Shown: in pieces, positions 6,205-27,735 of the stretch
Numbering within the stretch: the stretch's first letter is position 1
Layout of the letters: each line of letters opens with the position of its first letter
Sequence record: MH675927.1
Length of the DNA stretch: 64,000 bases
Source: Escherichia phage vB_vPM_PD114
Strand: one strand, 5' to 3'
Program-made: the position numbers and the translations under genes
The notes under the pieces: model-generated
The model's input: the letters and a program-made list of their open reading frames with translations, nothing else
Database searches by the model: none
Told to the model about the DNA's origin: nothing

Positions 6205-8091
6205 ATGTATCCTATTCCTTTATTTATGTCAACAACATCAGCTTCAGTAGTAACAGCTACGTCTATAACCACTTCCTCTATTGGTATTGCAATAGTTGGT
6301 AGTAAAAAGCAACTGACATACACAGTTTCACCAGAAGATGGTGCGTTATTTGATATAGCTTTTTCATCTTCAGATAATACCAAAATGGTTATAGATAATA
6401 ACGGTATGATGGAGTTTGTTGCTGAAGGCGGTTTTGATGCAATAATGACAGCTAAAAATAATTTAGGTGCTGTCTTAACTGATCAATCTGGTGGCTATGC
6501 TTCAGAATTAAGTGTGTACACTGAAAGTCTGTCTGCTATGGATGCAGGAACTACTCAACAATTGGTTGCTACAATCAGTCCAGAAGGTGCTAAAGACCTT
6601 CCAGACATGGTAATTACGTACACCACAACAGATCCAGAAGTAGCTACTGTAAGCCCTACAGGATTAATAACTGCTCTTAAAGATGGCAGTTGCCGTATAG
6701 GTTGTACTGCAACTTATCAAGGAACAGTGGTGGCCTCTGATAGTTCTTATTTAGGTGTTAATGCTATTCCTGTTATTTCTAATGTAACAGCCGTGGCAAA
6801 CAGCTATGGAGACATTCGTGTTGCTTGGGATGTAGCTGATCCGCTAGATGGTGATACTTATACTGTAGAAGTATTAGATTTAAGTAATAACAGTGTCCAG
6901 TGGACTACAACAACCACGAATACTTACGCTTACTTTGATATCTCTGACTCTATTCCTCTTTATGGGTTTGCTCCAACATACCTTAAAATTAGCGTTAAGA
7001 GCACCAAAGCAGCACCCGTTATCTTTAATAACTCAATAGCTACAGATGATTCATTCATTAAAGAAGTTATTGTCTTTGCTGGACAAGATAACGTAAATGC
7101 ACACTTTACAGAATTATCTGGTGCAAATAAAGCAGCAATGAGTAGCACAACAGCCCGTAACGCATATGCTACGCAACGTGGTTTAGCAAATGCTGAAGTT
7201 CTTCCGTTAAATGCAGCTTCTGGATCATCAGCAGCAGATAAATATGCAGATGATAAAGCCGGAACAGGTACACCAGACAACTACTGGTATGATCTGGATA
7301 ACGCAGCAGATGGGCCATGCTTAACTAATTTTATCACTAAAGTCACACCTTATGCAAGTAAGGTTAAAGCAATTATTTGGGGACAAGGTGAAAACGATGC
7401 TGTATCAGCATCTTCGACTGTTGCAGGTAGGTACAGTAACACTACACGTTACCATGATGCTACGATAGCTATCTTTGATAAGATGCGTACAATAGTTCCT
7501 GCTTCTCAAGCAAAAATTGTTTGGCAGATCCTAGGACGTTCTTATCTATATGGTGTAGAAGTTAATGGTGTGGATTGGCAGAAATACAGAAATGTACAAA
7601 GAACCATCTCTACAGCACGTGACGATGTTATCATTGGTTCTTGGGTGGATGGTGCTGAACGCTACAGTGGTTATGTTTATGAAGAAGGTATTGATGGTCG
7701 TATCCATTATGTTTCTTCTGTATATCAAACAGCAGCTACAAAACTTGCTAAATCAGCAGCAGACGGTACAGACTTAACATCAACACCGCCTGTTTGGGTT
7801 GATATGTCTGTTCCAACAGGAGGAGCCGCTGTAAGACAAGCTAACCAAGATGCAATTATTTCTTGGGAACCAGCAGGATATACCAAACATTACTTCCGAA
7901 ATGTAAACGTCCTCACAGCAGCAATTCTTACAGAACAAACTCTTGATACTAACACTTACACATTTACTTATGCAGATCAGGTTGAACAATACGGGTTTGC
8001 AGCAGGTACAACAGTGTTTGATGTTGCACACTATGATGCTGATAATGACGTGTTATCACCTCTTGTCAGATTTACAGTTAATATTACATAA
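6205..8091 (+). CDS. tail fiber / receptor-binding protein with Ig-like (Big_2-type) domain and C-terminal SASA/SGNH-like esterase-like domain
   Basis: RBS AAGGAG; Big_2-like segment ATVSPTGLITALKDGSCRI; C-terminal blocks VIVFAGQDNV and KAIIWGQGENDA resemble sialate O-acetylesterase (SASA) blocks GQSN and WxQGESD. Confidence 0.55.
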   Translation: MYPIPLFMSTTSASVVTATSITTSSIGIAIVGSKKQLTYTVSPEDGALFDIAFSSSDNTKMVIDNNGMMEFVAEGGFDAIMTAKNNLGAVLTDQSGGYASELSVYTESLSAMDAGTTQQLVATISPEGAKDLPDMVITYTTTDPEVATVSPTGLITALKDGSCRIGCTATYQGTVVASDSSYLGVNAIPVISNVTAVANSYGDIRVAWDVADPLDGDTYTVEVLDLSNNSVQWTTTTTNTYAYFDISDSIPLYGFAPTYLKISVKSTKAAPVIFNNSIATDDSFIKEVIVFAGQDNVNAHFTELSGANKAAMSSTTARNAYATQRGLANAEVLPLNAASGSSAADKYADDKAGTGTPDNYWYDLDNAADGPCLTNFITKVTPYASKVKAIIWGQGENDAVSASSTVAGRYSNTTRYHDATIAIFDKMRTIVPASQAKIVWQILGRSYLYGVEVNGVDWQKYRNVQRTISTARDDVIIGSWVDGAERYSGYVYEEGIDGRIHYVSSVYQTAATKLAKSAADGTDLTSTPPVWVDMSVPTGGAAVRQANQDAIISWEPAGYTKHYFRNVNVLTAAILTEQTLDTNTYTFTYADQVEQYGFAAGTTVFDVAHYDADNDVLSPLVRFTVNIT

Positions 8092-8092
8092 A

Positions 8093-8124
8093 CAAAAAGG
8101 AGCCATTAGGCTCCTTTTCTTTTA
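8093..8124. terminator. bidirectional rho-independent terminator between converging modules
   Basis: GGAGCC-ATTA-GGCTCC hairpin flanked by an A-run upstream and a T-run downstream; lies between the plus-strand fibre genes and the minus-strand genes. Confidence 0.65.
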
Positions 8125-8126
8125 TC

Positions 8127-8558
8127 TTAATCAGTGAAAATTACGCTTACATCTTCTTTAGAGAAGAGTTTATGATCTTCACCTTTTGTCTCAAGAGTTT
8201 CATACAGGTTAAGAAGTTCTGAAACATCTTTCTCTACTAGTTTCTTCAATGTTGCAATTTTCTGTTTGCGATTTTTAATACGTTCAGCTACAACCTTACG
8301 TTGGTATCCAGCAGTACGATAACCTGAGAAAGTTACACCAGTAAGACTTGCAGTTACAGGATCGTAGTGACGTTCAATCTGAAATTTATTAAAAGGTACA
8401 GCGTCATCACGAATAATCTTACCGCCATTACTTACTTGACGAAGACCAGTAACTTGTTCCAGTCGTGCCATAGAAATCTTTGGAGACAGACCAGAGTCCA
8501 GGTTCATACCGTTGTTAATCAGTGCTTTCAGGGTGATTTTGCTGTTCAGTGTACTCAT
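8127..8558 (-). CDS. hypothetical protein
   Basis: 143-aa ORF directly downstream of the methyltransferase gene with 44-nt overlap; no recognisable motif. Confidence 0.4.
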   Translation of the reverse strand: MSTLNSKITLKALINNGMNLDSGLSPKISMARLEQVTGLRQVSNGGKIIRDDAVPFNKFQIERHYDPVTASLTGVTFSGYRTAGYQRKVVAERIKNRKQKIATLKKLVEKDVSELLNLYETLETKGEDHKLFSKEDVSVIFTD

Positions 8559-11938: not shown

Positions 11939-14900
11939 TCAGTGACAAGTTGACCATGAACTACCAACATCGTAACCAGCAGTTAGAGGTACATTAAGAT
12001 TGTAATACTCACCAGCTTTATTAACAGCGATAGATGCTAATTCTCCAGCACGACTGTAGGCTGTAAACCAACCACCTTTCGGAGATTCATGTACGTTAGC
12101 CCAAATCTTGCCAGTACGTTTCTCTTCCTCTTCTTTCCAGGTATTAACTTTATCCAAACATTCTTTATCAATTTTCTTTTGTTCTTCTGGATCATCAACT
12201 TGAGTCCAACCTAAAGATTCTTTAGAGAACCATTTAAAATGCACGAGATCACGAGTTACTTCAAGCTGTGCTTCATCGTGATATGCAATCATTTGTTGAA
12301 CGAATGACTTATTTTTCCAGTCATCAACAAAAAAGTCAACAGCTAATCCTTCTTCTTCGATAAGATCGTCGTAGATAACCATTGCTCTTTTTGCACAAAT
12401 AACACCACCACTCTGGAACAGAGAGTTAAGTATTGCGTGTGCAGATCGTGTAGGTACTTTCCTACCATCAATACCAAGAATGTATTTCTTACCTGTTTTA
12501 ACCCAAAAATCATGCAGACGTTCTTTAAGAAGTGCAAGAGGTTTTGCAGCTTCCCAGAAAGCATCGTATACAAGCTGTCCTGTATACATATCACTACCAA
12601 TAGTTTTTGCTACTTTTGCAGCTTGAGCACCATAAGTAATACCATACTTAACAGATTTAGCAGGGCTTCGTTCAAACTTACGACCAATAGTGTCAGAAAT
12701 ACGTCGAGCCATCATTGTATGAACATCATTAGGTTTTTCCAACAATAGAGCATTACAATATTCGTGTGGTTCCTGCTCGTACCGCCAACAATTCCCTGTA
12801 ATCGTGATGCAGTCTTTCTGACGCATAACCCATGTACCGAGTTCTGTTTGTGGACACCAAACATCTTCTACACCCCATTCTTCAATAGTCAGACTTTGAA
12901 CAGGGATGTGAGAGCGGTTAGCCAACGTTGCCACTTTTACTTTCTGGTCTTTCGTATTGAAGGCTACAGAAATATTACCCCCATGAACCAGGTATGAGGC
13001 AGTTAAGGCTGCTTCAAAAAGTTCTCCTGGGTTCTGCGCCCAGCGCCAAACAGGTTTTTGTTTATGTTTGTGCCAGTAACCATCCGCAATCAAAAAACCT
13101 TCCAAGAAAGCCACACGCTCGGCATGAGACATATTAACTACACGTTCTACCCACGGAACATCCCATTTACCTTGTTGAACAGAAGTTAAACTATTTACTT
13201 GATCTTGTTCCATGTTAAATGGAGCATTACAAATAATGTTATCTCCTGTGCAAAGCTCGGCAGTTGTTCTGACTTTAGGCACATAAGTATTCCCTGTACT
13301 ACGAGTATTAACATACCAACGGTGATCTGCTGTTGCACGATAAGTATGGGATTTTCCTTTAATCTCAAACGTCTTACTATTTTTATAGAAGACCTTACCT
13401 TTTACTTTAGTCCATTCTTTAAGTCCTGTTTCTGGGTTATATCCTAAGATTTCATCCCCTTCTTGTAGATCGTGATAACCAACCCAACCTTTACGGGTTA
13501 GTGCTTGTGCATCCATAGGTACACAGTAATGTGATTCTATTTTTGCCTCAAGAGAATCAAAGTCATAACCAATTTGGAAGTATTTTGGAACTTCTACACC
13601 AAATAAGTTACGCATTTCATATCCGTACAGAGATGTTACACGTGGGATGTTTGCTACTAACCTATGTTTCATACGAGACGTAGCTGCATCGCACGTTGCA
13701 GCAGGGGTTGGTATACGACCATCAGCCCTTACTGCCGCCAGATAACCTTTATCGTAATCCTCTTCATCCTCTTCCCAATCAGCGCCACCCCCTAGAATAG
13801 AGTTCCTACGATGTTTATACGTAAGATACTGCACAATCTGCGTAGCATAAGGAAACTTTTCACCTAGTGCTTCCAAGTTAGGACAAATATCCTTCTCTTG
13901 CCCTTTTGTAAAGGAAGGGTTAGTAAGCACTTTAACACCACGGCCTTTAGCTTTAGCAATACGATCTCTTAGTTTCCATTCCAAAGTTTCTGGTGTGCAC
14001 TCCAGATGATCACATCTATCCTGGCAGAAGTTAGATGCTAACGTTTGATCAACATAGTCACGAATAGCTTTCTCCATTTGTGCTTCATCTTTCTTAATCT
14101 TAGTGCCAGATTTAAGAGTGATATCTTTATCTTTATATTCAGATGGACTCCAACCTAAACCAACTAACCAATTTTTAATATGTGTAGTGTCGTCTAAAGT
14201 AGCAGGTACTGTAGGATCACAAATAGGTTCTTCTGCTGGAATAGGTAGTTTAAACTCCTTACCTAATGCAAATAACCACCAACCATCTTCTTTTTGTACA
14301 AGTTCACCAGAATGTTTCTCTGCAAACTTTATCATGTTACTTGAAGGTTCACCATTCTTTTTAAACTGTAGTTTAGGTGGAATGAATGATTTCAAATAAC
14401 CTTTAGTAGCAGGTTTAGGAGGTAGTACAGGTTCTGCCTCTAAACGACATGCTTCCATTCGAGCATCCAGATCACGAATATTATCTTCTGCTTGTTTCAT
14501 ATTGAAAGCAAAGCCACGGTGCTCTTGACGTGTAATAATATCAGCTACACGTTGTTCTAAGTTAAATGGTTCAGACCACTTATTATAATCACCCCACTCT
14601 TCCATCAAATAACGGAACACTGCGGTGTTAGCTTTGTTATCGTAAATACAGTAATACAGCATATCTGCTGCAAATGTTCTAAATCTTTCAGTTTCAGGGA
14701 TGTTTTTTCTAAAATCAATTTTAACATCCCCTCCAGCTTTCTTAGATAACTCTGCCAGACTATGACCACCGAAGCGATCAGGGTTTAGTGTCTTACTTAA
14801 GATCATAGTATCACAAATTTCAATGTTACTATTACCCCAAGTATTGTACTTAATACTGTAGTTGAGTTTAAAAAATAATTTAATTGCCAGTAAGTCGAAG

Positions 14901-15253
14901 TTAATGATGTTGTGTCCAACTACTTTGGTAATTTTATAGTTTGAATTACCTTTAAATTTACCTGTTCCATTTACAAAATCAGGAAAATCTTTAAGAGGGA
15001 AATGGGTATATTCTAAATGCTCATATTCCTCCAGTCGGTATTCATACTTTCCGTCAGTCTCAATATACGGACGACCATCGAAAAGATATTTATCACCATC
15101 ATGGAAAGCAATAATCTCTCCAGTATCATGACTTTCGCACACAATACAGTGCATTGCAAAACTATCTTTTAAACGATATGGACTTGCCAAGTAATCTACA
15201 CTTTCGTCATTAAGCAAGTTGTTACTTTCAATGTCGAAAGTAAAAGCTCCCAT
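11939..15253 (-). CDS. DNA polymerase, family A (T7 gp5-like), with 3-prime-5-prime exonuclease domain; contains an intein
   Basis: N-terminal exo motifs (FDIES, HCIVCESHD, GGHSLAEL) and C-terminal motifs (KSVKYGITYG, GIDGRKVPTRSAHAILNSLFQSGGVICAK, AYHDEAQLEV) colinear with T7-type polymerases; RBS AGGAGGGAGA. Confidence 0.9.
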   Translation of the reverse strand: MGAFTFDIESNNLLNDESVDYLASPYRLKDSFAMHCIVCESHDTGEIIAFHDGDKYLFDGRPYIETDGKYEYRLEEYEHLEYTHFPLKDFPDFVNGTGKFKGNSNYKITKVVGHNIINFDLLAIKLFFKLNYSIKYNTWGNSNIEICDTMILSKTLNPDRFGGHSLAELSKKAGGDVKIDFRKNIPETERFRTFAADMLYYCIYDNKANTAVFRYLMEEWGDYNKWSEPFNLEQRVADIITRQEHRGFAFNMKQAEDNIRDLDARMEACRLEAEPVLPPKPATKGYLKSFIPPKLQFKKNGEPSSNMIKFAEKHSGELVQKEDGWWLFALGKEFKLPIPAEEPICDPTVPATLDDTTHIKNWLVGLGWSPSEYKDKDITLKSGTKIKKDEAQMEKAIRDYVDQTLASNFCQDRCDHLECTPETLEWKLRDRIAKAKGRGVKVLTNPSFTKGQEKDICPNLEALGEKFPYATQIVQYLTYKHRRNSILGGGADWEEDEEDYDKGYLAAVRADGRIPTPAATCDAATSRMKHRLVANIPRVTSLYGYEMRNLFGVEVPKYFQIGYDFDSLEAKIESHYCVPMDAQALTRKGWVGYHDLQEGDEILGYNPETGLKEWTKVKGKVFYKNSKTFEIKGKSHTYRATADHRWYVNTRSTGNTYVPKVRTTAELCTGDNIICNAPFNMEQDQVNSLTSVQQGKWDVPWVERVVNMSHAERVAFLEGFLIADGYWHKHKQKPVWRWAQNPGELFEAALTASYLVHGGNISVAFNTKDQKVKVATLANRSHIPVQSLTIEEWGVEDVWCPQTELGTWVMRQKDCITITGNCWRYEQEPHEYCNALLLEKPNDVHTMMARRISDTIGRKFERSPAKSVKYGITYGAQAAKVAKTIGSDMYTGQLVYDAFWEAAKPLALLKERLHDFWVKTGKKYILGIDGRKVPTRSAHAILNSLFQSGGVICAKRAMVIYDDLIEEEGLAVDFFVDDWKNKSFVQQMIAYHDEAQLEVTRDLVHFKWFSKESLGWTQVDDPEEQKKIDKECLDKVNTWKEEEEKRTGKIWANVHESPKGGWFTAYSRAGELASIAVNKAGEYYNLNVPLTAGYDVGSSWSTCH
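12791..13525 (-). mobile_element. intein inserted after polymerase motif A (about 245 codons, LAGLIDADG-type endonuclease motif)
   Basis: In-frame block CVPMDAQALT...ITITGN followed by Cys; contains VAFLEGFLIADGYW; flanking extein ...LEAKIESHY|CWRYEQEPHEY... is contiguous relative to T7-type polymerases; terminal dipeptide is GN rather than HN. Confidence 0.7.
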
Positions 15254-15320: not shown

Positions 15321-15340
15321 AAAGGGGCTTTCGCCCCTTC
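15321..15340 (-). terminator. stem-loop, putative terminator (GGGGC-TTTC-GCCCC)
   Basis: Same hairpin as at 4170-4183; 7 nt downstream of stop of 15344-15739 on the minus strand; weak U-tract. Confidence 0.35.
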
Positions 15341-17534: not shown

Positions 17535-17804
17535 CTAAAATGATTCGTTTGTCTCCATAATATATTGCATTTCCAAATCTTCCATATGTTTCTTAAATTG
17601 GTAAACAATTTCCGATGGGGAAATATCTATATCAAAAAGTTCTTTTGTACCAGAATAAAACCTAATACCATCAACAATAAGACCACCATAATAATCCCAA
17701 TCACTTTCTCGTGAGAAAGGATTAGGTTCTTCATAATAGTAATCTACTTCAACAATAATAGGTTCTTTATTATCTTGTTTATACTCAAAATCAAAAGTGT
17801 TCAT
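17535..17804 (-). CDS. hypothetical acidic protein
   Basis: 89-aa ORF abutting the next gene; no motif. Confidence 0.4.
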   Translation of the reverse strand: MNTFDFEYKQDNKEPIIVEVDYYYEEPNPFSRESDWDYYGGLIVDGIRFYSGTKELFDIDISPSEIVYQFKKHMEDLEMQYIMETNESF

Positions 17805-18748
17805 TATAAATCCTCGATAAGCAGTCTGCGGGTTTCATTTAAATCATCAATATTGTAGTTATCTCTTACATACTTAGCAAGAGCCAATCCTTTCTCAATA
17901 CAAACATCAGGAGATTCGATTAAGTATTCTACAATATCTTTCCACTCTTTAACTGAATCAGCAAAGAAGATTAGATCTTTAAACTCTTCAGTATAATAGT
18001 TCTCTCTTGGTGAACAAACGAGTGGCAAACCTTTAGCACCAGCTTCAAGAATTTTTAAATTACTTTTGGCATTATTAAAATGATTATTTACTAATGGAGC
18101 TATGGAGATTTGATGACCATCGTATGCTTCCATATAACACTCATAAGGACGAATACCTTCATAAACACAATCTGGTTGAATATCTTCTTTAATTTGCAAC
18201 CATTGAGCACTACTTAACTCTTCATGATCTCTACGAAATCCACATAAAGTTAAATCTTTACCAAAACTAGGAAGAATAGCTAAATCATGTTTATGTGTTT
18301 CACTTCCCGCCCAAACCAGTGGACTTTTAGAATAACGATCTTTCGTAAGAACAAACTGTCCTTCATCAAAAGGTAGTCCGTTAGGCACAATATGTACATT
18401 ATCATTGTATTGGCTTAATTCAACCTTTAATGCTGGAGTTGTTGTAGTTACAAGATCGCTTCTTTCAAGGAACCATTTTAGGTCATCTCGGATTTGATTT
18501 TCAAATAATCCTTCAAGCATATGCCCTTCAGGAATAATTAAAGAATCATCCAGATCCATTACCAATTTAAACCCAAGTTGTTTAAGAGCCAGGAAACCTG
18601 GCTTTCCACGGGTTGGTACTCCATTGAACACAAAAATATTATGCTTAGGATTAATGGTCAGTTTGCGTTTATATGGCAAAATGATTCTATGAAAATCACA
18701 TACACTATACTTTTCATTTCCGCGTGTGTCAAGAATAATATTAGGCAT
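17804..18748 (-). CDS. glycosyltransferase (GT-B-like), paralog 1
   Basis: C-terminal SNLKILEAGAKGLPLVCSP resembles the GT1/GT4 nucleotide-sugar binding motif; clear paralog of 18760-19734 (shared LPxDEGQFxLTKDRYS, YDGHxIxIAPLVxNxFNNxKSNLKILEAGAKGLP). Confidence 0.5.
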   Translation of the reverse strand: MPNIILDTRGNEKYSVCDFHRIILPYKRKLTINPKHNIFVFNGVPTRGKPGFLALKQLGFKLVMDLDDSLIIPEGHMLEGLFENQIRDDLKWFLERSDLVTTTTPALKVELSQYNDNVHIVPNGLPFDEGQFVLTKDRYSKSPLVWAGSETHKHDLAILPSFGKDLTLCGFRRDHEELSSAQWLQIKEDIQPDCVYEGIRPYECYMEAYDGHQISIAPLVNNHFNNAKSNLKILEAGAKGLPLVCSPRENYYTEEFKDLIFFADSVKEWKDIVEYLIESPDVCIEKGLALAKYVRDNYNIDDLNETRRLLIEDL

Positions 18749-18759
18749 ATGGCTCCTTG

Positions 18760-19734
18760 TTAAAGACTTTCAATAACTTGACGACGCAGTTCATTGGCAT
18801 CTGCAAGATTATAATTAAGACGAACGTGTTCTGCAAGCATCATACCACGATCTTCTGTGTATCTAGGGTTCCTCATTAGCTTGACAACTTCATAATGCCA
18901 AGATGCTTTAGAATCTGCATAGATAACAGCCTTTGCATCTACCGGATTGAAGTACGGCAGCACAGGAGAACAGATAATAGGAAGACCCTTTGCACCTGCT
19001 TCCAAAATCTTCAAATTGCTTTTACAGTTGTTGAAGTCATTGTCTACCAGAGGAGCAATTGCAATACTATGACCGTCATACACAGACATATACTCACCTA
19101 AATTTTTAATAGCTGGTTTATACTGTGCATTTGGAATTTTACGTTTTACTTTAACCCACTCCGCAGTAGTTAGATACTGACTATTATTTCCAACAGGTGC
19201 AGAAGGATACACTTCATAACCTGCAATTGTCAATAGCGTATCATCAAATGTATTAGCTACAAGAGATAAATCAGGTTCATGGCTTGCTCCTCCAGCCCAG
19301 ATAATAGGCGTGTCAGAATAACGGTCTTTTGTCAAAGTAAATTGACCTTCATCGTAAGGCAGTGCGTTTCTAATAACGACAACATTACGATTTAAATGAC
19401 GAATTTTGTAAGCCAGGTATTCTGTTGTTACTGTAACAACATCTGCTAACTTAACCATCTCTACAATAGTCTTTGAATGATTAGTAAATACGCCAGCCAT
19501 ATAATGTTCAGGATTAAGTGAATAAAAGTCATCTAAATCAACAATAATCTTAACACCTTGTGCCTTCAGGCGTTTAACTTCGTCTGCTCCATGAGAATAC
19601 ACTCTATTAAAAACTAAAACGTCTTTCTTAGGTTTAAACGTATTTCCAGCAAATGGCATTACAATACGATGGTAATCACAACCACTGCCTAACTTATTAT
19701 CACACTTAAGTACAGGAGTATTAGGATTTACCAT
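18760..19734 (-). CDS. glycosyltransferase (GT-B-like), paralog 2
   Basis: Same motifs as paralog 1; start placed at ATG 19734 (RBS AGGAGG) by alignment with paralog 1. Confidence 0.5.
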   Translation of the reverse strand: MVNPNTPVLKCDNKLGSGCDYHRIVMPFAGNTFKPKKDVLVFNRVYSHGADEVKRLKAQGVKIIVDLDDFYSLNPEHYMAGVFTNHSKTIVEMVKLADVVTVTTEYLAYKIRHLNRNVVVIRNALPYDEGQFTLTKDRYSDTPIIWAGGASHEPDLSLVANTFDDTLLTIAGYEVYPSAPVGNNSQYLTTAEWVKVKRKIPNAQYKPAIKNLGEYMSVYDGHSIAIAPLVDNDFNNCKSNLKILEAGAKGLPIICSPVLPYFNPVDAKAVIYADSKASWHYEVVKLMRNPRYTEDRGMMLAEHVRLNYNLADANELRRQVIESL

Positions 19735-20407
19735 ATTTTTGAGCCTCCTCATAAGAGATAAAAGTTTTACCATTGCGAAGATCCTCCAGTGATTGTTTAT
19801 ATTGTTCCCAGTTTACACCAATCCCCTGTTCTTTCTCTTCTTTTGACAGATTCGCAAAAGGTAAAGGATTGTCTCCAAACACATCGTCAGGATGGATAAA
19901 CGCCATAATTCGAATAGGACATGGTACGCCTGGAATACCTCGGTTCAAACCTGCCAGCGGAACGCGCTGAATCCACTCTGCATCTTCATATCCATAACCG
20001 TGGGTGTATGAGCGGAAATAGCCAGCTTTCTCAATAACTGCACGGGAATACATACCAAACTGGCACATCCCTAGTTCCCAAATAACCACTTCCCCTTCAA
20101 TACCTTTTACTTTATCTTTAAAGTATTCAGGCATACCAAAGAAATCCCAACCATTTTCCTTCGCCTGTTTTACAAAATATGTTTCCCAACCTTGAACAAC
20201 AGGATAACAATCATCATCAAAAATAAACCAGTAATCATACCCTTCATCATAAAACTTTTTCATCAATTCATTACGAGCATATGCAACACCTTTTCGTTCC
20301 CGATCATACTGTACAACAAAAGTAGCATTAGGATCAGTCACAAGATAGTCTTTAAGAGGACGCTTACCTACAGTAATAACACCAACACCAATTTTTGTAT
20401 TTTCCAA
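19721..20407 (-). CDS. glycosyltransferase, family 2-like (GT-A fold)
   Basis: GVAYARNE...YDYWFIFDDDCYP (DxD-type) and GYGYEDAEW motifs typical of GT2 enzymes. Confidence 0.55.
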   Translation of the reverse strand: MENTKIGVGVITVGKRPLKDYLVTDPNATFVVQYDRERKGVAYARNELMKKFYDEGYDYWFIFDDDCYPVVQGWETYFVKQAKENGWDFFGMPEYFKDKVKGIEGEVVIWELGMCQFGMYSRAVIEKAGYFRSYTHGYGYEDAEWIQRVPLAGLNRGIPGVPCPIRIMAFIHPDDVFGDNPLPFANLSKEEKEQGIGVNWEQYKQSLEDLRNGKTFISYEEAQKYGKS

Positions 20408-20416
20408 AATAACTCC

Positions 20417-20980
20417 TTAAATAATTTTATTCATGTCTTGACAATGTAAAAGGTGTGAAACAGCTTTTCTAGGATCATCGTTACCTAAACGATACGTGTG
20501 AAATAAATATAACCCACGTAGTAAACCTAGCCTTTTATTATTAGCATGTAATGCTTTAGAGAAAATTATATCAAACTGTATTGATCTTTCCTCAAAAGGG
20601 ATTTCATTCCACAGACTCTTACGAAAGAGAAGAAAGAATCCTGCTAAGATAGCATCTGTAGGTACTTCCTCTATTGAGTTTCCCCATTCTAGATGTGCTC
20701 TTTTTGCAATCTCAATGTGGTGTAATATATTTGGATCTTCACTTCTTTCATTATTAAATAATTGATATGTTGATCCTAATCTATTACAAGATGCACCAAG
20801 AACATCAAAATCAGGATTTGAACGGACTATTGATTCCAACCAAGCAGGTTGTTCTGGAAGAAGAAACATTGTATCAATGTCTCTTAGGCAAATCCAACTA
20901 TCTTCTGGTAAGACACTTATTGTGTCATTGATACCTTTTCCAATATCTCCAGAAAGATAGGGAGTTATGTGAAATATCAT
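20417..20980 (-). CDS. putative nucleotide-sugar transferase-like protein (tentative)
   Basis: ICLRDIDTMF DxD-like motif; fourth member of a contiguous glycosyltransferase cluster. Confidence 0.35.
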   Translation of the reverse strand: MIFHITPYLSGDIGKGINDTISVLPEDSWICLRDIDTMFLLPEQPAWLESIVRSNPDFDVLGASCNRLGSTYQLFNNERSEDPNILHHIEIAKRAHLEWGNSIEEVPTDAILAGFFLLFRKSLWNEIPFEERSIQFDIIFSKALHANNKRLGLLRGLYLFHTYRLGNDDPRKAVSHLLHCQDMNKII

Positions 20981-21728: not shown

Positions 21729-22238
21729 TTAGCGATAGAATTGATGTTCTTTGTAGCGGTACACTAGAACCATATCTTTTTCCCAGTGTGCTCTTATTGT
21801 AGATTTTTTAAAGTATAATGCTCCTTTAGTAATATCTAGTGCAATTCGTAGTTCTGGAAAATGGTCATCGAGATAAAGCAGACGTTCTGCTATAGCCTTA
21901 GCTTCCTTCCACTTATCGTGTTCCATAACGTTGAATGTCTTTGTGTAAGAGAATTGTCCTTTTTGAAACAAAACTTCTTTTATAGTATCAGGGAAATATG
22001 AATCTCTCGCCCTATTCAATACTACATTACCAACAGCAGACATACCGCGCTTTCCTTGATTACGACTTTCTGCATAGATTGCACAAGCTAATAGATTTTC
22101 TTTACTATCACGCTTTGTACACTTGTGAACTACTTTAGCAGTTTTTACGTTTGCAGCTTCGGCTTGCGCCACAACAGGTGTAAATGTAAAAGCAGTTAAG
22201 GATAGTAACGCAATTGCGACAAAGGTTTTTATTGACAA
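21729..22238 (-). CDS. secreted cell-wall hydrolase, SleB/Hydrolase_2-like
   Basis: N-terminal signal peptide (IALLSLTAFTFTPVVAQA); CAIYAESRNQG...GMSAVGNVVLNRAR matches the SleB-type cell wall hydrolase signature. Confidence 0.6.
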   Translation of the reverse strand: MSIKTFVAIALLSLTAFTFTPVVAQAEAANVKTAKVVHKCTKRDSKENLLACAIYAESRNQGKRGMSAVGNVVLNRARDSYFPDTIKEVLFQKGQFSYTKTFNVMEHDKWKEAKAIAERLLYLDDHFPELRIALDITKGALYFKKSTIRAHWEKDMVLVYRYKEHQFYR

Positions 22239-22961: not shown

Positions 22962-22981
22962 ATGCGCCCCGAAGGGCGCTA
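22962..22981 (-). other. intergenic stem-loop (GCGCCC-CGAA-GGGCGC)
   Basis: GC hairpin between TerD stop and the next gene start. Confidence 0.3.
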
Positions 22982-23000: not shown

Positions 23001-23597
23001 TTACTCGAACCAATCGTCGCCAGCGCCAAACGCTTTAACTACATCGTAAATATCAAGCCCAGCTTTACCTACACCATATGCTTTCAGTTTCCATTCACTA
23101 TCTTCCCGTACCAGGGAGGCAACGTGGCAAATGGTGTTACCTGCAAGTTCTGGAGCCAAGAAATCAAAGTCCAGCAGTTCAACATTACGTTCATCATCGA
23201 AGATTTTAAGGAAACCTTCGGTAGCATGACCAAGGCGTTTCTTACCCGTTTCGTCATCAATAGTAATTACGAATGCAATTTCCTGTGCTTCAGCAGAGAT
23301 ATTATCCAGTGTAACATCAATCTGCTCCATTTGTCCTACACCGTCACGAACATCTTCACCTGCAAAAGTAGAACGTTCAGGATCAAATTTCTGTGCGTAG
23401 CATACCAGGTGGCGAGGAGACAACAGTTCCGGCAGACCAGATGCATTGTGTCGGCAAATCAGAGCACTAACATCCAGATCCAGTTTTTCGTTAGATTTCC
23501 AAGAGAATTCCAGACGAATACGTTTCAGTGCTGGTGCGATCTTTTTCAGAGAAACTTTTTCGCTAGAACCTTTTTTCAGGGAAATTTTCTGAGTCAT
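23001..23597 (-). CDS. TerD-domain protein (tellurium-resistance TerD/TerZ family)
   Basis: N-terminal ISLKKGSSEKVSLKK and C-terminal ...WKLKAYGVGKAGLDIYDVVKAFGAGDDWFE follow the TerD pattern (acidic core, C-terminal W-K-F-x-A-x-G-x-G); RBS AAGGAGA. Confidence 0.75.
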   Translation of the reverse strand: MTQKISLKKGSSEKVSLKKIAPALKRIRLEFSWKSNEKLDLDVSALICRHNASGLPELLSPRHLVCYAQKFDPERSTFAGEDVRDGVGQMEQIDVTLDNISAEAQEIAFVITIDDETGKKRLGHATEGFLKIFDDERNVELLDFDFLAPELAGNTICHVASLVREDSEWKLKAYGVGKAGLDIYDVVKAFGAGDDWFE

Positions 23598-23670: not shown

Positions 23671-24465
23671 TTACGCTTTTGCTCCGAATTTTTTAACCCA
23701 CTCGCCAAACTCTTCGGATAACAGTTTATCGTAGAGTTCTTCATCAGACAAGGACAAATCTGCAATACCGATAAAATCAACATTATCGTATTCTTTTGCC
23801 AAGTCTTTCAGGAATTTAAAGTTTGCATTACCTACACCAACCATAAACCAGTAAACAGGCGTATTGCGGTGTTTGTTCAGTAAGCTACGTACTGCTGAAG
23901 TATCCATGTTCTCCCCGTCAGTTTGGAAGAAAATCATTGCAGGAGTACGATCAACTTGTGCATCAGTATCTACAACCTGTTCTACAACAGTACGTGTTAC
24001 TTCTACAAGTTCTTTTTTACCAGTTAATTTAGCAAGGAAACCCTTAGCCGGAACTTCTTCATACTCAACGACTTCGCGTGTAATATTTTTCATAGGTACA
24101 CTACCGAAGTATGTATCATAGATCTCTTGCATTACTGGAGCATAAGCAGTACCACCGTTGATGCAAACATTAGACATGCAAGAGCCGACATAATCATCAT
24201 ACACATCAGCCGTTGCAGGAGGCAGTTCAAAAGAAGAACTATTGAAAGCCCACATGTCAATCTGTGCATTGTCATCAAACTTCATACCAAACGGCAGCAG
24301 TTTACCTACAAAATCACTAACAGTGCCATCACGATACAGCTCACACATACTACCCGAAATATCTAAGGCGCTACCGACACGAAGAACAACATCGTTAATC
24401 TTTTTCTTACGCAGAGATACAGTAAGAGTTTCTTGACGTTTTTTAAGACTGATTTTATTGGACAT
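23671..24465 (-). CDS. von Willebrand factor A (vWA) domain protein, TerF/TerY-like
   Basis: MIDAS motif LDISGSM, downstream GGTAYAPV and IFFQTDGEN; short TerD-like N-terminal ISLKK segment; adjacent to TerD. Confidence 0.65.
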   Translation of the reverse strand: MSNKISLKKRQETLTVSLRKKKINDVVLRVGSALDISGSMCELYRDGTVSDFVGKLLPFGMKFDDNAQIDMWAFNSSSFELPPATADVYDDYVGSCMSNVCINGGTAYAPVMQEIYDTYFGSVPMKNITREVVEYEEVPAKGFLAKLTGKKELVEVTRTVVEQVVDTDAQVDRTPAMIFFQTDGENMDTSAVRSLLNKHRNTPVYWFMVGVGNANFKFLKDLAKEYDNVDFIGIADLSLSDEELYDKLLSEEFGEWVKKFGAKA

Positions 24466-25725: not shown

Positions 25726-26815
25726 GTTTAACAGTTTGAATCATACCATCTTCAAGAGATTGTACTTCTTGAATGTAATCAATACGAGCAGCACGGGCTT
25801 CAGTGTTGATTCGGTTAGTTTCTTCCAACATTTTAACTAAGTTTTCTTGATCGCGACGTAATGTTTCAATATCCAATACTTGACGATTAGCAAGTTGCGT
25901 AGCTTCAATTTGGTTTTGTGCAGCCAGATCACTACCCATTGCAATAGCCGCATTAAATTCATTCAGTACATTGTTCTGTGTATCGGCTGCTTTCTTCTGG
26001 CGTAGACTTTCAATATACATAGAAAAGTTTGCAGAGTAAGCAGGAATAACATTATTCACAATATTACGGGCTGATCGCATCAAACTTGCAGATACTTTCT
26101 GCATACTTTGTACACGTGGCCCCATCTGAACACACAGTAAACGCAAGGCTTTCAGGTCTGCAATACGAATTTCAAGCAGATCCATAGTATCACGAGTACG
26201 TTGACGCTCTTCTACTTCATTTTCAGGTAGTGTATTAAGGCGAACTTCTTCTTTTTCATAAGTAGCTGTTAGAAGCTCTATATCCCTGTTTAAGCTAAGA
26301 GCATATTTTGCAATAGCCTCTTCTAAACGTTGCAGATATCGTAAAGAATCTTCTTCTTTTTTCAAGTCTGTTTGGAGTGTCTTTACCAAACCTTCAATAC
26401 GATTATTGATGGTGTCAAATTCACCAAACAAATCTTCTTTCATACCTAATACTTTCTTAACTAGTTTACCTAAGCCTTTAGATTGTTTAATAGAGTTAGG
26501 ATCAAGTTGCTTTGCTTGCTTAATAAGTGCAGTTAAACGTTCACTCATTTCATCTCCCTGGGATGAACGCTGGTGTTTAAGCACTTCAGCATTAAGGTTA
26601 CGAAGAGTAAGTCCTGCATCAGCACCAACCTGTTCAATCTCTTCACGAGACATTGGAGGCAGCATTTGTACAGGTCGTGCAACAGCAGGGGCATATACAG
26701 GGCTTGCATCCATAGCACTTGGAGCAAACAAAGACTTACTTTTTTCTGTTGTTGCCGTGAATACACTCATTTCAGACGGTTTGCTTTTTACGGCACTAAT
26801 AAAAGGACTGGACAT
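25712..26815 (-). CDS. TelA-like (toxic anion resistance / KlaB family) protein, tentative
   Basis: 367-aa, strongly coiled-coil protein of TelA-like size and composition; GGAGG RBS; sits among TerD/vWA/TerC genes. Confidence 0.5.
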   Translation of the reverse strand: MSSPFISAVKSKPSEMSVFTATTEKSKSLFAPSAMDASPVYAPAVARPVQMLPPMSREEIEQVGADAGLTLRNLNAEVLKHQRSSQGDEMSERLTALIKQAKQLDPNSIKQSKGLGKLVKKVLGMKEDLFGEFDTINNRIEGLVKTLQTDLKKEEDSLRYLQRLEEAIAKYALSLNRDIELLTATYEKEEVRLNTLPENEVEERQRTRDTMDLLEIRIADLKALRLLCVQMGPRVQSMQKVSASLMRSARNIVNNVIPAYSANFSMYIESLRQKKAADTQNNVLNEFNAAIAMGSDLAAQNQIEATQLANRQVLDIETLRRDQENLVKMLEETNRINTEARAARIDYIQEVQSLEDGMIQTVKRGLL

Positions 26816-26883
26816 TCAATTTCCTCCATATTCTTTAGTAGATGGTGATACCTCTGTACCACCATCATAACACAAATTAAGTA

Positions 26884-27735
26884 TTAAACAAACATATCTA
26901 AATAATTTGTAGTAATAAATGCTCCATCTGCTTCCAGATTAACATAACCAGTAGCATTAGTGGTTAAGAAATCCAGATCGAAGGACTCTTTAACACCCCG
27001 TACCTCAACACGAGAGATATCGAATACAGGTAGTGTAACAGCCTCTTCGTGCAATACCGTACCTTTGTAGGTTGCCTTAATGATAAACTTGATATTACCC
27101 GTTCCCGCATCATACAAAACACTTTCAAAGCCTTTGAGAGTATACTTATCACCAGAGGTGAAGTGCAAAGTTGCTTTGTTTACAGTACGTTTTTTACGAG
27201 GAGTTCCTTTCACACGTTTATGATCACTACGTTTTTTGTATTTAGGAATGAATACAAACGATACACTCTCAAGAAAAGTATCAACATCAAGGATTTTAAT
27301 ATCCTCTGTTTCAGCAAATTTTGAAGTCGTTGCATCAAAATGCTTTGCCCTGCGATCATACATAAAGATATCAAACCGATCTTCTAAATCAAACAAATTG
27401 TGTATCTTAATTTCAGAATGCTTGCACATTGCAGCAACCTTAAACTCTTCAAAACGTGGGTGTTCTACAAGCTCTTCAAGTTTTACACCAAAGACAGTAT
27501 ATTGTTTCGAAGTTTTTTCTGGCGTTGGCATTACAGAAGCATAATCACCGATTGCGCTTTTAAAGCAAAATTGTTCTTGACCTGTATTTTTACCAACGAA
27601 TTTACAGTATTCGTCATCGTGCATACTTTCTTTGGTAGTACCAACAAACTCAAAACCATCTTTATTCTTCTCAAGAATTTCTTGATTAAAGATCAAACCT
27701 TCCAGGCGATACACTTTACCAACTTCTAGTTTCAT
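26884..27735 (-). CDS. hypothetical protein
   Basis: 283-aa ORF; no motif recognised. Confidence 0.45.
   Translation of the reverse strand: MKLEVGKVYRLEGLIFNQEILEKNKDGFEFVGTTKESMHDDEYCKFVGKNTGQEQFCFKSAIGDYASVMPTPEKTSKQYTVFGVKLEELVEHPRFEEFKVAAMCKHSEIKIHNLFDLEDRFDIFMYDRRAKHFDATTSKFAETEDIKILDVDTFLESVSFVFIPKYKKRSDHKRVKGTPRKKRTVNKATLHFTSGDKYTLKGFESVLYDAGTGNIKFIIKATYKGTVLHEEAVTLPVFDISRVEVRGVKESFDLDFLTTNATGYVNLEADGAFITTNYLDMFV

Follow-up and report, generated by a model that had tools for sequence, protein, structure and literature searches.

Escherichia phage vB_vPM_PD114 (sequence record MH675927.1) carries a cassette of four soluble glycosyltransferases, belonging to three families and packed as one operon, within the stretch of 64,000 nucleotides analyzed here (hereafter the window). 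The four open reading frames (ORFs) lie where a first-pass annotation of the window had placed them, and all are on the minus strand, which that annotation had left unspecified. The first gene in the direction of transcription (20417..20980) encodes a protein of 187 amino acids (aa), a minimal GT2-like GT-A enzyme matching phrog_14179 (E = 5.5e-113). It is followed by a gene with a TTG start (19721..20407), whose 228-aa product is identified by fold and PHROG family as a GT2/GT7-like GT-A enzyme, and then by two GT4-like GT-B genes: GT-B2 (18760..19734, 324 aa; phrog_7162, E = 7e-149) and GT-B1 (17804..18748, 314 aa; Pfam Glyco_trans_1_2 and PHROG). Below, A3 denotes the 187-aa type, A2 the 228-aa GT-A type, and A1 the GT-B type. 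Gaps and overlaps within the cassette do not exceed about 14 nt, and a Shine-Dalgarno sequence precedes each gene. GenBank relatives of GT-B2 start at an upstream ATG (19773), which would give a protein of 337 aa and raise the spacing figure to 53 nt; Shine-Dalgarno sequences precede both 19773 and 19734, and the start at 19734 is favored because homologs measure 314–328 aa.

The stop of GT-B1 overlaps the start of an acidic ORF of 89 aa with no assigned function (17535..17804, minus; pI 4.1; phrog_4240, E = 8e-35). The primase-helicase gene (17522–15750, minus) lies 12 nt beyond this ORF, and the family-A DNA polymerase gene (15253–11939, minus) lies farther along. The transcription order therefore runs from the 187-aa gene through the 228-aa gene, GT-B2, GT-B1 and the 89-aa ORF to the primase-helicase and, after intervening genes, the DNA polymerase. 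The cluster had been described as lying downstream of the primase-helicase; in the direction of transcription it lies upstream. An ORF of 83–89 aa occupies the same place between GT-B and primase-helicase genes in loci L006 and L007 and in Klebsiella phage phi1_175008, a comparison of position alone.

The family assignment by hidden Markov models that the first-pass annotation had proposed was carried out. All four proteins match PHROG families labeled glycosyltransferase (E = 2e-79 to 7e-149), and in the Pfam scan GT-B1 is the only one above the gathering threshold (Glyco_trans_1_2, 26.8 versus 25 bits), GT-B2 falling below it (Glyco_trans_1_4 / 1_2 at 17.9 and 14.9 bits). The two GT-B proteins had been read as a tandem paralog pair, and this is borne out: they share 40% identity across 324 columns (E = 7e-82), and both contain the two sequence motifs cited for them. 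Each consists of two Rossmann-like domains in GT-B topology, and the closest solved structures to GT-B1 include PglA, PglH/WlaC, PimA, WaaG and TarM. The hallmark of GT4-like GT-B enzymes is a C-terminal E-x7-E motif. In this GT-B family the motif is absent: only the second Glu (E235) is invariant, with Ala (GT-B1) or Cys (GT-B2) at the -8 position, and the family retains K228-S229-x-x-K232 in its place. Single-copy GT-B homologs from Klebsiella phages, small phages and Burkholderia are 37–66% identical to GT-B2 and 31–39% identical to GT-B1. Because they stand nearer to GT-B2, GT-B2 is the ancestral copy and GT-B1 the derived duplicate, which is present in both Justusliebigvirus and Phapecoctavirus.

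The remaining two proteins had been described as a GT2-like GT-A enzyme and a DxD protein, and both descriptions hold. The predicted structure of the 228-aa protein is a GT-A fold (predicted local distance difference test score of 90), with a Rossmann fold and an invariant DDD and an invariant ED across the family. Its structural neighbors include GlfT2, ppGalNAc-T1, chondroitin polymerase, beta4GalT7, TarP, TarS and the rhamnosyltransferase RmlT; a Foldseek search against viral structures (BFVD) returned unnamed, non-discriminating top matches. The 187-aa protein has no Pfam match, and its family, which counts at least 1,217 cluster representatives in an exhaustive HMMER search, has D34xD36, N66-R67 and H161 as invariants. 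Fusions to TOD1_MUCI70, GT2 or methyltransferase domains are frequent in the family, and in some members, such as P0123 and P0134, the 187-aa-type domain itself matches Glycos_transf_2 / Glyco_tranf_2_3. The family profile retrieved nothing from Protein Data Bank (PDB) sequences, and hhalign gave a probability of 2% against the GT-A family; with these searches uninformative, the glycosyltransferase assignment of the 187-aa protein relies on the members that match GT2 models. Searching PDB sequences and NCBIfam with each of the four proteins as a single-sequence query yielded nothing useful. All four proteins lack transmembrane segments, the maximum Kyte-Doolittle hydropathy over 19 residues being 0.83–1.21.

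The window belongs to Justusliebigvirus (phi92-like phages), and the cluster region is 98–99% identical to those of PATM and the BASEL phage Bas62 (JohannJBalmer) and is conserved in 52 of 56 matching records. The gene cluster is not new as such. Glycosyltransferase is already the RefSeq annotation of all four in relatives, and two were named 'putative disaccharide synthase' by the authors of the BASEL collection. A complete deoxythymidine diphosphate (dTDP)-rhamnose pathway was described in phi92-like phages and Phapecoctavirus, together with the speculation that it serves the rhamnosylation of hydroxymethylated nucleotides (Olsen et al. 2020, PMC7552041). The DNA-modification reading has thus already been published, and it has also already been doubted. 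In Bas62, rmlBADC lies about 68 kb from the cassette, outside the window, among genes for ribonucleotide reductase (RNR), ThyX, thymidine kinase and glutaredoxin. The groups that hold the cassette (Justusliebigvirus, Phapecoctavirus and Klebsiella Stephanstirmvirinae) also have RmlC, and in locus L006 a gene for a nucleoside diphosphate-sugar dehydratase/epimerase lies inside the cassette itself. Among coliphages the cassette is limited to Stephanstirmvirinae, every Escherichia-named match being at least 60% identical; the tallies of organisms and identities imply that rV5-like Vequintavirus records are without it. The system is reduced in Klebsiella Stephanstirmvirinae: phi1_175008 (L008) has only the 187-aa type and one GT-B gene ahead of the primase-helicase, and KP13-26 (L085) has only rmlC and rmlD beside its RNR genes, the region inspected containing neither rmlA nor rmlB.

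The first-pass annotation regarded modified DNA bases as a fitting acceptor for stepwise, anti-restriction glycosylation, in line with the suggestion by Olsen et al. (2020) that a modified base might be rhamnosylated. The stepwise action of several glycosyltransferases is supported by the presence of four soluble enzymes from three families in one operon and by the co-occurrence of rml genes. For DNA as the acceptor, several features can be cited. The cassette genes run in the same direction as those of the primase-helicase and DNA polymerase and are closely packed with them, a synteny kept in distant relatives, and the rml genes sit among those of nucleotide metabolism. The R...DDD...ED pattern of the GT-A family resembles that of DNA-modifying phage GT-A enzymes (bioRxiv 10.1101/2023.12.21.572611). 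C5 DNA methylases are found near 3 of 18 GT-B homologs, and the genome encodes a MazG-like NTP pyrophosphatase and a 5'-deoxynucleotidase. Weak Pfam TAGT matches also occur in 17 of 19 GT-A family members; none of them, however, is better than E = 4.1e-5 or reaches the family threshold, and the best score of the 228-aa protein against TAGT (PF20691), over residues 16–77, is 24.1 bits versus a gathering threshold of 27.5. No enzyme of the cassette thus attains the threshold of a DNA-glycosyltransferase family.

The phenotype of close relatives also speaks against DNA. When Maffei et al. (2021, PMC8594841) exposed the phi92-like phages Bas60–62 to six restriction-modification systems, the phages proved exceptionally susceptible and not effectively protected, 'despite ... 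a putative dTDP glycosylation machinery'. Furthermore, the known glycosylated pyrimidines need a ThyA-homologous hydroxymethylase or hydroxylase, or else a methyltransferase plus TET (PMC13326640; bioRxiv 10.1101/2023.12.21.572611). The absence of a hydroxymethylase from the window, as first reported, is consistent with our search, and the search of the rest of the genome for base-modifying enzymes, run on the approximately 99% identical Bas62, found none. Its full curated annotation contains no ThyA-type hydroxymethylase/hydroxylase, 5-hydroxy-dCMP synthase or TET/JBP protein, and a Pfam scan of 26 large unknown proteins, in which small ORFs were not scanned exhaustively, contained no TET/JBP, 2-oxoglutarate oxygenase or ThyA domain. 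That scan instead gave Ter-system, phosphoribosyltransferase (PRTase), HAD, macro, NADAR and MazG-like domains. Thymidylate synthase is represented solely by a divergent ThyX-type enzyme of 323 aa (Bas62 122761–123732; L003:9762–10733), outside the window, which passes Pfam for PF02511 (Thy1) at 37 bits and scores 35.8 bits against an equivalog cut-off of 87.9 for TIGR02170. The chemistry of this ThyX may be of interest, as flavin-dependent ThyA homologs are now known to hydroxylate dCMP.

The T-even DNA glucosyltransferases (the T4 alpha- and beta-enzymes and the T6-type TAGT) and the 5-hydroxycytosine arabinosyltransferases of RB69 and HY126 resemble the cassette in being sequentially acting phage GT-B/GT-A enzymes with genes near DNA metabolism, in generic fold similarity and in the weak TAGT profile match. 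Such systems require a ThyA-homologous hydroxymethylase/hydroxylase or TET and confer broad restriction resistance (PMC13326640; PMC13390438), whereas here no enzyme of that kind was found, relatives are hypersensitive to restriction-modification systems, and the structural ranks are unremarkable. A tblastn search of the 228-aa protein against 50,697 phage records recovered no T-even TAGT; its phage relatives are those of mycobacteria, described below. By every criterion that could be applied here, the cassette stands outside the T-even/TAGT pathway of DNA glycosylation, and the role proposed for it in anti-restriction base modification is left unsupported. Our literature search found no nucleoside mass spectrometry for Justusliebigvirus, and when DNA-modification or BrxU data were sought for PATM and Paula, near-identical phages from Durham, the 2026 paper proved to cover just 12 Straboviridae. 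Sparse or sequence-specific glycosylation of DNA may occur; overall, we consider DNA hypermodification quite improbable.

A different connection emerged from the same tblastn search. Outside Stephanstirmvirinae, the 228-aa protein has one sizeable group of phage relatives, 539 records of Mycobacterium phages from clusters F1 and C, including the F1 phages Maravista (gp99), Job42 and SiSi as well as Myrna-type phages. The N-terminal domain of Maravista gp99 matches the GT-A family profile with E = 3e-24 (BLASTP, 1.2e-11). Glycans on capsid proteins have been reported for the F1 phages Che8 and Rita (PMC11256854), and Che8 gp108–110 constitute a virion glycosylation system according to the citation of Freeman et al. 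(2023) in PMC11256854. Like the cassette, the Che8 system consists of several adjacent soluble phage glycosyltransferases whose genes are not necessarily part of a structural operon: they lie at the right genome end, away from the structural genes. Proximity to replication genes does not, therefore, count against a virion target, and the placement far from the tail genes, which had been offered as a clue to the acceptor, is a weak one. The systems also differ. The host here is Gram-negative and the phage a large lytic myovirus, in which the system is known from its genes, and the coliphage set adds GT4-like GT-B enzymes, the 187-aa minimal GT-A and a phage rhamnose pathway.

The second line of evidence comes from unrelated phages in which the same gene families recur in the head module. 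A census was made of 32 non-redundant IMG/VR loci with a distant homolog of the 187-aa protein (identity no higher than 49%), counting Pfam families in ORFs of at least 170 aa within 6 kb on each side. The commonest families are Phage_capsid and Phage_portal (12 each), followed by large-terminase domains (TerL_nuclease, 7; TerL_ATPase, 5; Terminase_3, 4; Terminase_6N, 2), the prohead protease S78 (6), Mu_F (5) and other glycosyltransferases. Sugar-type methyltransferases are also represented (Methyltransf_24 at least 7 times, and Methyltransf_23), and replication-type families appear only as singletons among the families listed. An A2 gene is present in 17 of the 32 loci, mostly directly adjacent to A3, and an A1 gene in 8.

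The gene orders make the association concrete. Four loci (L045, L051, L054 and L099) have a portal-sized ORF, a protease-sized ORF and a capsid gene (PF05065, E about 1e-59), followed by A2-A1-A3. The order in L053 is portal-MuF ... A3-A2-A1, and that in L019 is A2-A1-71aa-TerS-TerL-portal-MuF-protease-capsid, where TerS and TerL are the small and large terminase subunits; in Streptomyces phage KimJongPhill, a cassette homolog likewise lies directly upstream of the small terminase subunit gene. Elsewhere, the capsid gene is followed by a 62-aa ORF, an A3 homolog and an A2-domain protein (L014), or by two methyltransferases, a 220-aa ORF and an 862-aa multi-glycosyltransferase (L016). Cellulophaga phi18:1 and L011 have portal/MuF ... 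methyltransferase, glycosyltransferase ... protease, capsid, and in L010 the homolog lies between terminase and portal. A remote parallel exists in the chlorovirus PBCV-1, whose A064R combines two rhamnosyltransferase domains with a methyltransferase and acts in capsid glycosylation. The likeness is one of architecture only: PBCV-1 is a eukaryotic giant virus, the sequence similarity is not significant, and no methyltransferase adjoins the cassette in the window.

Taken with the mycobacteriophage link, these neighborhoods lead us to favor, tentatively and at somewhat less than even chances, a cassette that glycosylates a non-DNA acceptor, most plausibly one or more virion proteins, with a short and probably rhamnose-containing glycan. 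Virion proteins had not been among the acceptors weighed in the first-pass annotation. The more specific proposal that the cassette and the phages' own dTDP-rhamnose pathway together glycosylate virion proteins of phi92-like and phAPEC8-like coliphages is possible, and we hold it with slightly more reserve. Under this model, the four cytoplasmic enzymes, probably co-transcribed with the replication genes, would add sugars sequentially, giving a short chain with at most about four residues. The donors would probably include, for at least one step, dTDP-L-rhamnose from phage rmlBADC, and the acceptor would be one or more structural proteins of the virion rather than DNA. A chromosomal GT-B homolog in Burkholderia dolosa (contig JAIMDN010000082, L005, gene 7205–8440; 411 aa, 44% identity to GT-B2) is encoded immediately after a 571-aa unknown protein and an inverse autotransporter of 853 aa that is invasin/intimin-like. 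This neighborhood hints at the glycosylation of an adhesin, that is, of a protein, and we count it on the side of a protein acceptor.

Several observations weigh against a virion acceptor. The experimentally studied Che8 gp108–110 match only marginally (best E = 7.7e-4 in a six-sequence database), and the operon neighbors of the cassette in Stephanstirmvirinae are the primase-helicase and DNA polymerase genes instead of structural ones. The neighborhoods of 18 GT-B homologs are mixed, the families listed containing C5 DNA methylase (3) and RecA, ERF and VapE (one each) in addition to terminase, portal and capsid. The head-module context is no proof of a virion acceptor, because small phages also commonly carry accessory (moron) genes behind the capsid gene. 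Glycan acceptors in mycobacteriophages are Ser/Thr-rich C-terminal tails. The capsid and tail-tube proteins of Bas62 have no obvious tail of this kind, and a search of the accessible literature turned up no Stephanstirmvirinae phage for which virion-protein glycosylation has been directly demonstrated. The idea that the capsid or tail tube could be recognized as the acceptor by such a tail was rejected; weak ends of this type are found in Bas62 only in the tail sheath, whose C-terminus is Ser-rich (...NSQNSNSSTVSS), and in the portal, whose end is also weakly Ser/Thr-rich.

The use of post-capsid slots for host-modifying accessory genes also bears on the main rival to virion glycosylation, which is modification of a host envelope glycan, the second option of the first-pass annotation; the soluble-acceptor and DNA readings rank behind it. 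Working at the cytoplasmic face, the enzymes would modify lipid-linked intermediates or the lipopolysaccharide (LPS) core, with LPS, enterobacterial common antigen, the NGR glycan or capsule as the final target, and the altered receptors would exclude superinfecting phages or keep progeny from being trapped on cell debris. The structural neighbors of the GT-B and GT-A proteins named above (PglA, PglH/WlaC, PimA, WaaG and TarM; GlfT2, TarP, TarS and RmlT) all make cell-envelope glycans, rhamnose is a typical envelope sugar, and the entry of phi92-like phages depends on surface glycans and the LPS core (PMC8594841; PMC11990801). The phage is strictly lytic, however, its four enzymes have no membrane segment, and no flippase, polymerase or partner of the GtrA/GtrB/GtrC type is annotated in Bas62. 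In other phages, moreover, the partners of these families are sugar methyltransferases and multi-domain glycosyltransferases located between head genes, and the hosts are very different (Cellulophaga and those of uncultured phages), so that a single host-glycan target across them would be unexpected. We regard envelope modification as unlikely. The Gtr modules of temperate phages (GtrA/GtrB/GtrC) share with the cassette the idea of phage-encoded glycosylation, in their case of a receptor glycan, and theirs is the mechanism underlying the envelope option of the first-pass annotation. Gtr proteins are nevertheless integral membrane proteins that use undecaprenyl-phosphate-sugar and work in the periplasm, unlike the four proteins of this lytic phage, and a Gtr-type seroconversion module was rejected on the lack of membrane segments.

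The acceptor might also be some other soluble molecule, either a host protein or non-structural phage protein modified for takeover or anti-defense, or a free glycoside or disaccharide, as the 'putative disaccharide synthase' label implies. Four glycosyltransferases and a rhamnose pathway would be a large outlay for a small metabolite, no particular protein or metabolite is specifically indicated, and the association with head modules in other phages would be left unexplained. We judge this rather improbable.

If virion glycosylation is correct, it would be the first such system in phages of Gram-negative bacteria, as we know of none there, and it would account for the presence of a complete rhamnose pathway in a lytic phage. 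Speculation about rhamnosylated DNA has been repeated in several papers. The many uncultured phages with the cassette beside their capsid genes would, if the proposal holds, indicate that virion glycosylation extends widely beyond actinobacteriophages, and the three-family cassette is a usable genomic marker for similar systems in metagenomes. Phages of Justusliebigvirus and Phapecoctavirus infect a very broad range of hosts, which accompanies their status as candidate agents in therapy and biocontrol. The glycan coat of mycobacteriophage virions reportedly shields the particles from antibodies; were the same true of these coliphages, their persistence in patients and the immune response to them would be affected.

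As to expression, scans of the 11–26 kb region for promoters (55 sites versus 45.9 +/- 6.8 expected) and terminators (8 found versus 8.3 expected) gave chance-level results, and the timing of expression is therefore deduced from gene packing alone. Although the terminator scan overall is at chance, two perfect GC-rich hairpins, both intergenic, lie at 22964–22979 (GCGCCC-CGAA-GGGCGC) and 15322–15339 (AAGGGGC-TTTC-GCCCCTT). They flank a hydrolase gene, the glycosyltransferase cassette and the primase-helicase gene, and may delimit a transcription unit. The hydrolase is a SleB-like cell-wall enzyme of 169 aa (21729–22238, minus; Pfam Hydrolase_2, E = 6e-20), whose gene is on the strand of the cassette, about 750 bp upstream. 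Its N-terminus resembles a signal peptide by eye, and it is distinct from the annotated endolysin located elsewhere in the genome.

Further observations concern other genes of the window and its relatives. The family-A DNA polymerase (11939–15253, minus) measures 1104 aa, compared with 859 aa in Bas62: about 244 aa are inserted after residue 577, between flanks that are 99.3–99.5% identical, and the insertion, absent in Bas62, looks like an intein or homing element. Beyond the cassette lies a Ter-type stress module comprising TerD, a vWA-TerF-like protein, TelA and TerC (23001–23597 and 23671–24465, minus, plus genes farther along), with Bas62 orthologs at L001:25499–26095 and 26168–26962. The genome also encodes a ComF-like PRTase, a HAD phosphatase, macro-domain and NADAR proteins, a MazG-like PRA-PH protein and an NT5C 5'-deoxynucleotidase. 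Finally, four records named 'Campylobacter phage' with Campylobacter jejuni as the host (MG065639, MG065645, MG065689 and MG065650) are 99% identical to E. coli Justusliebigvirus/Phapecoctavirus genes and are probably mislabeled or contaminant genomes.

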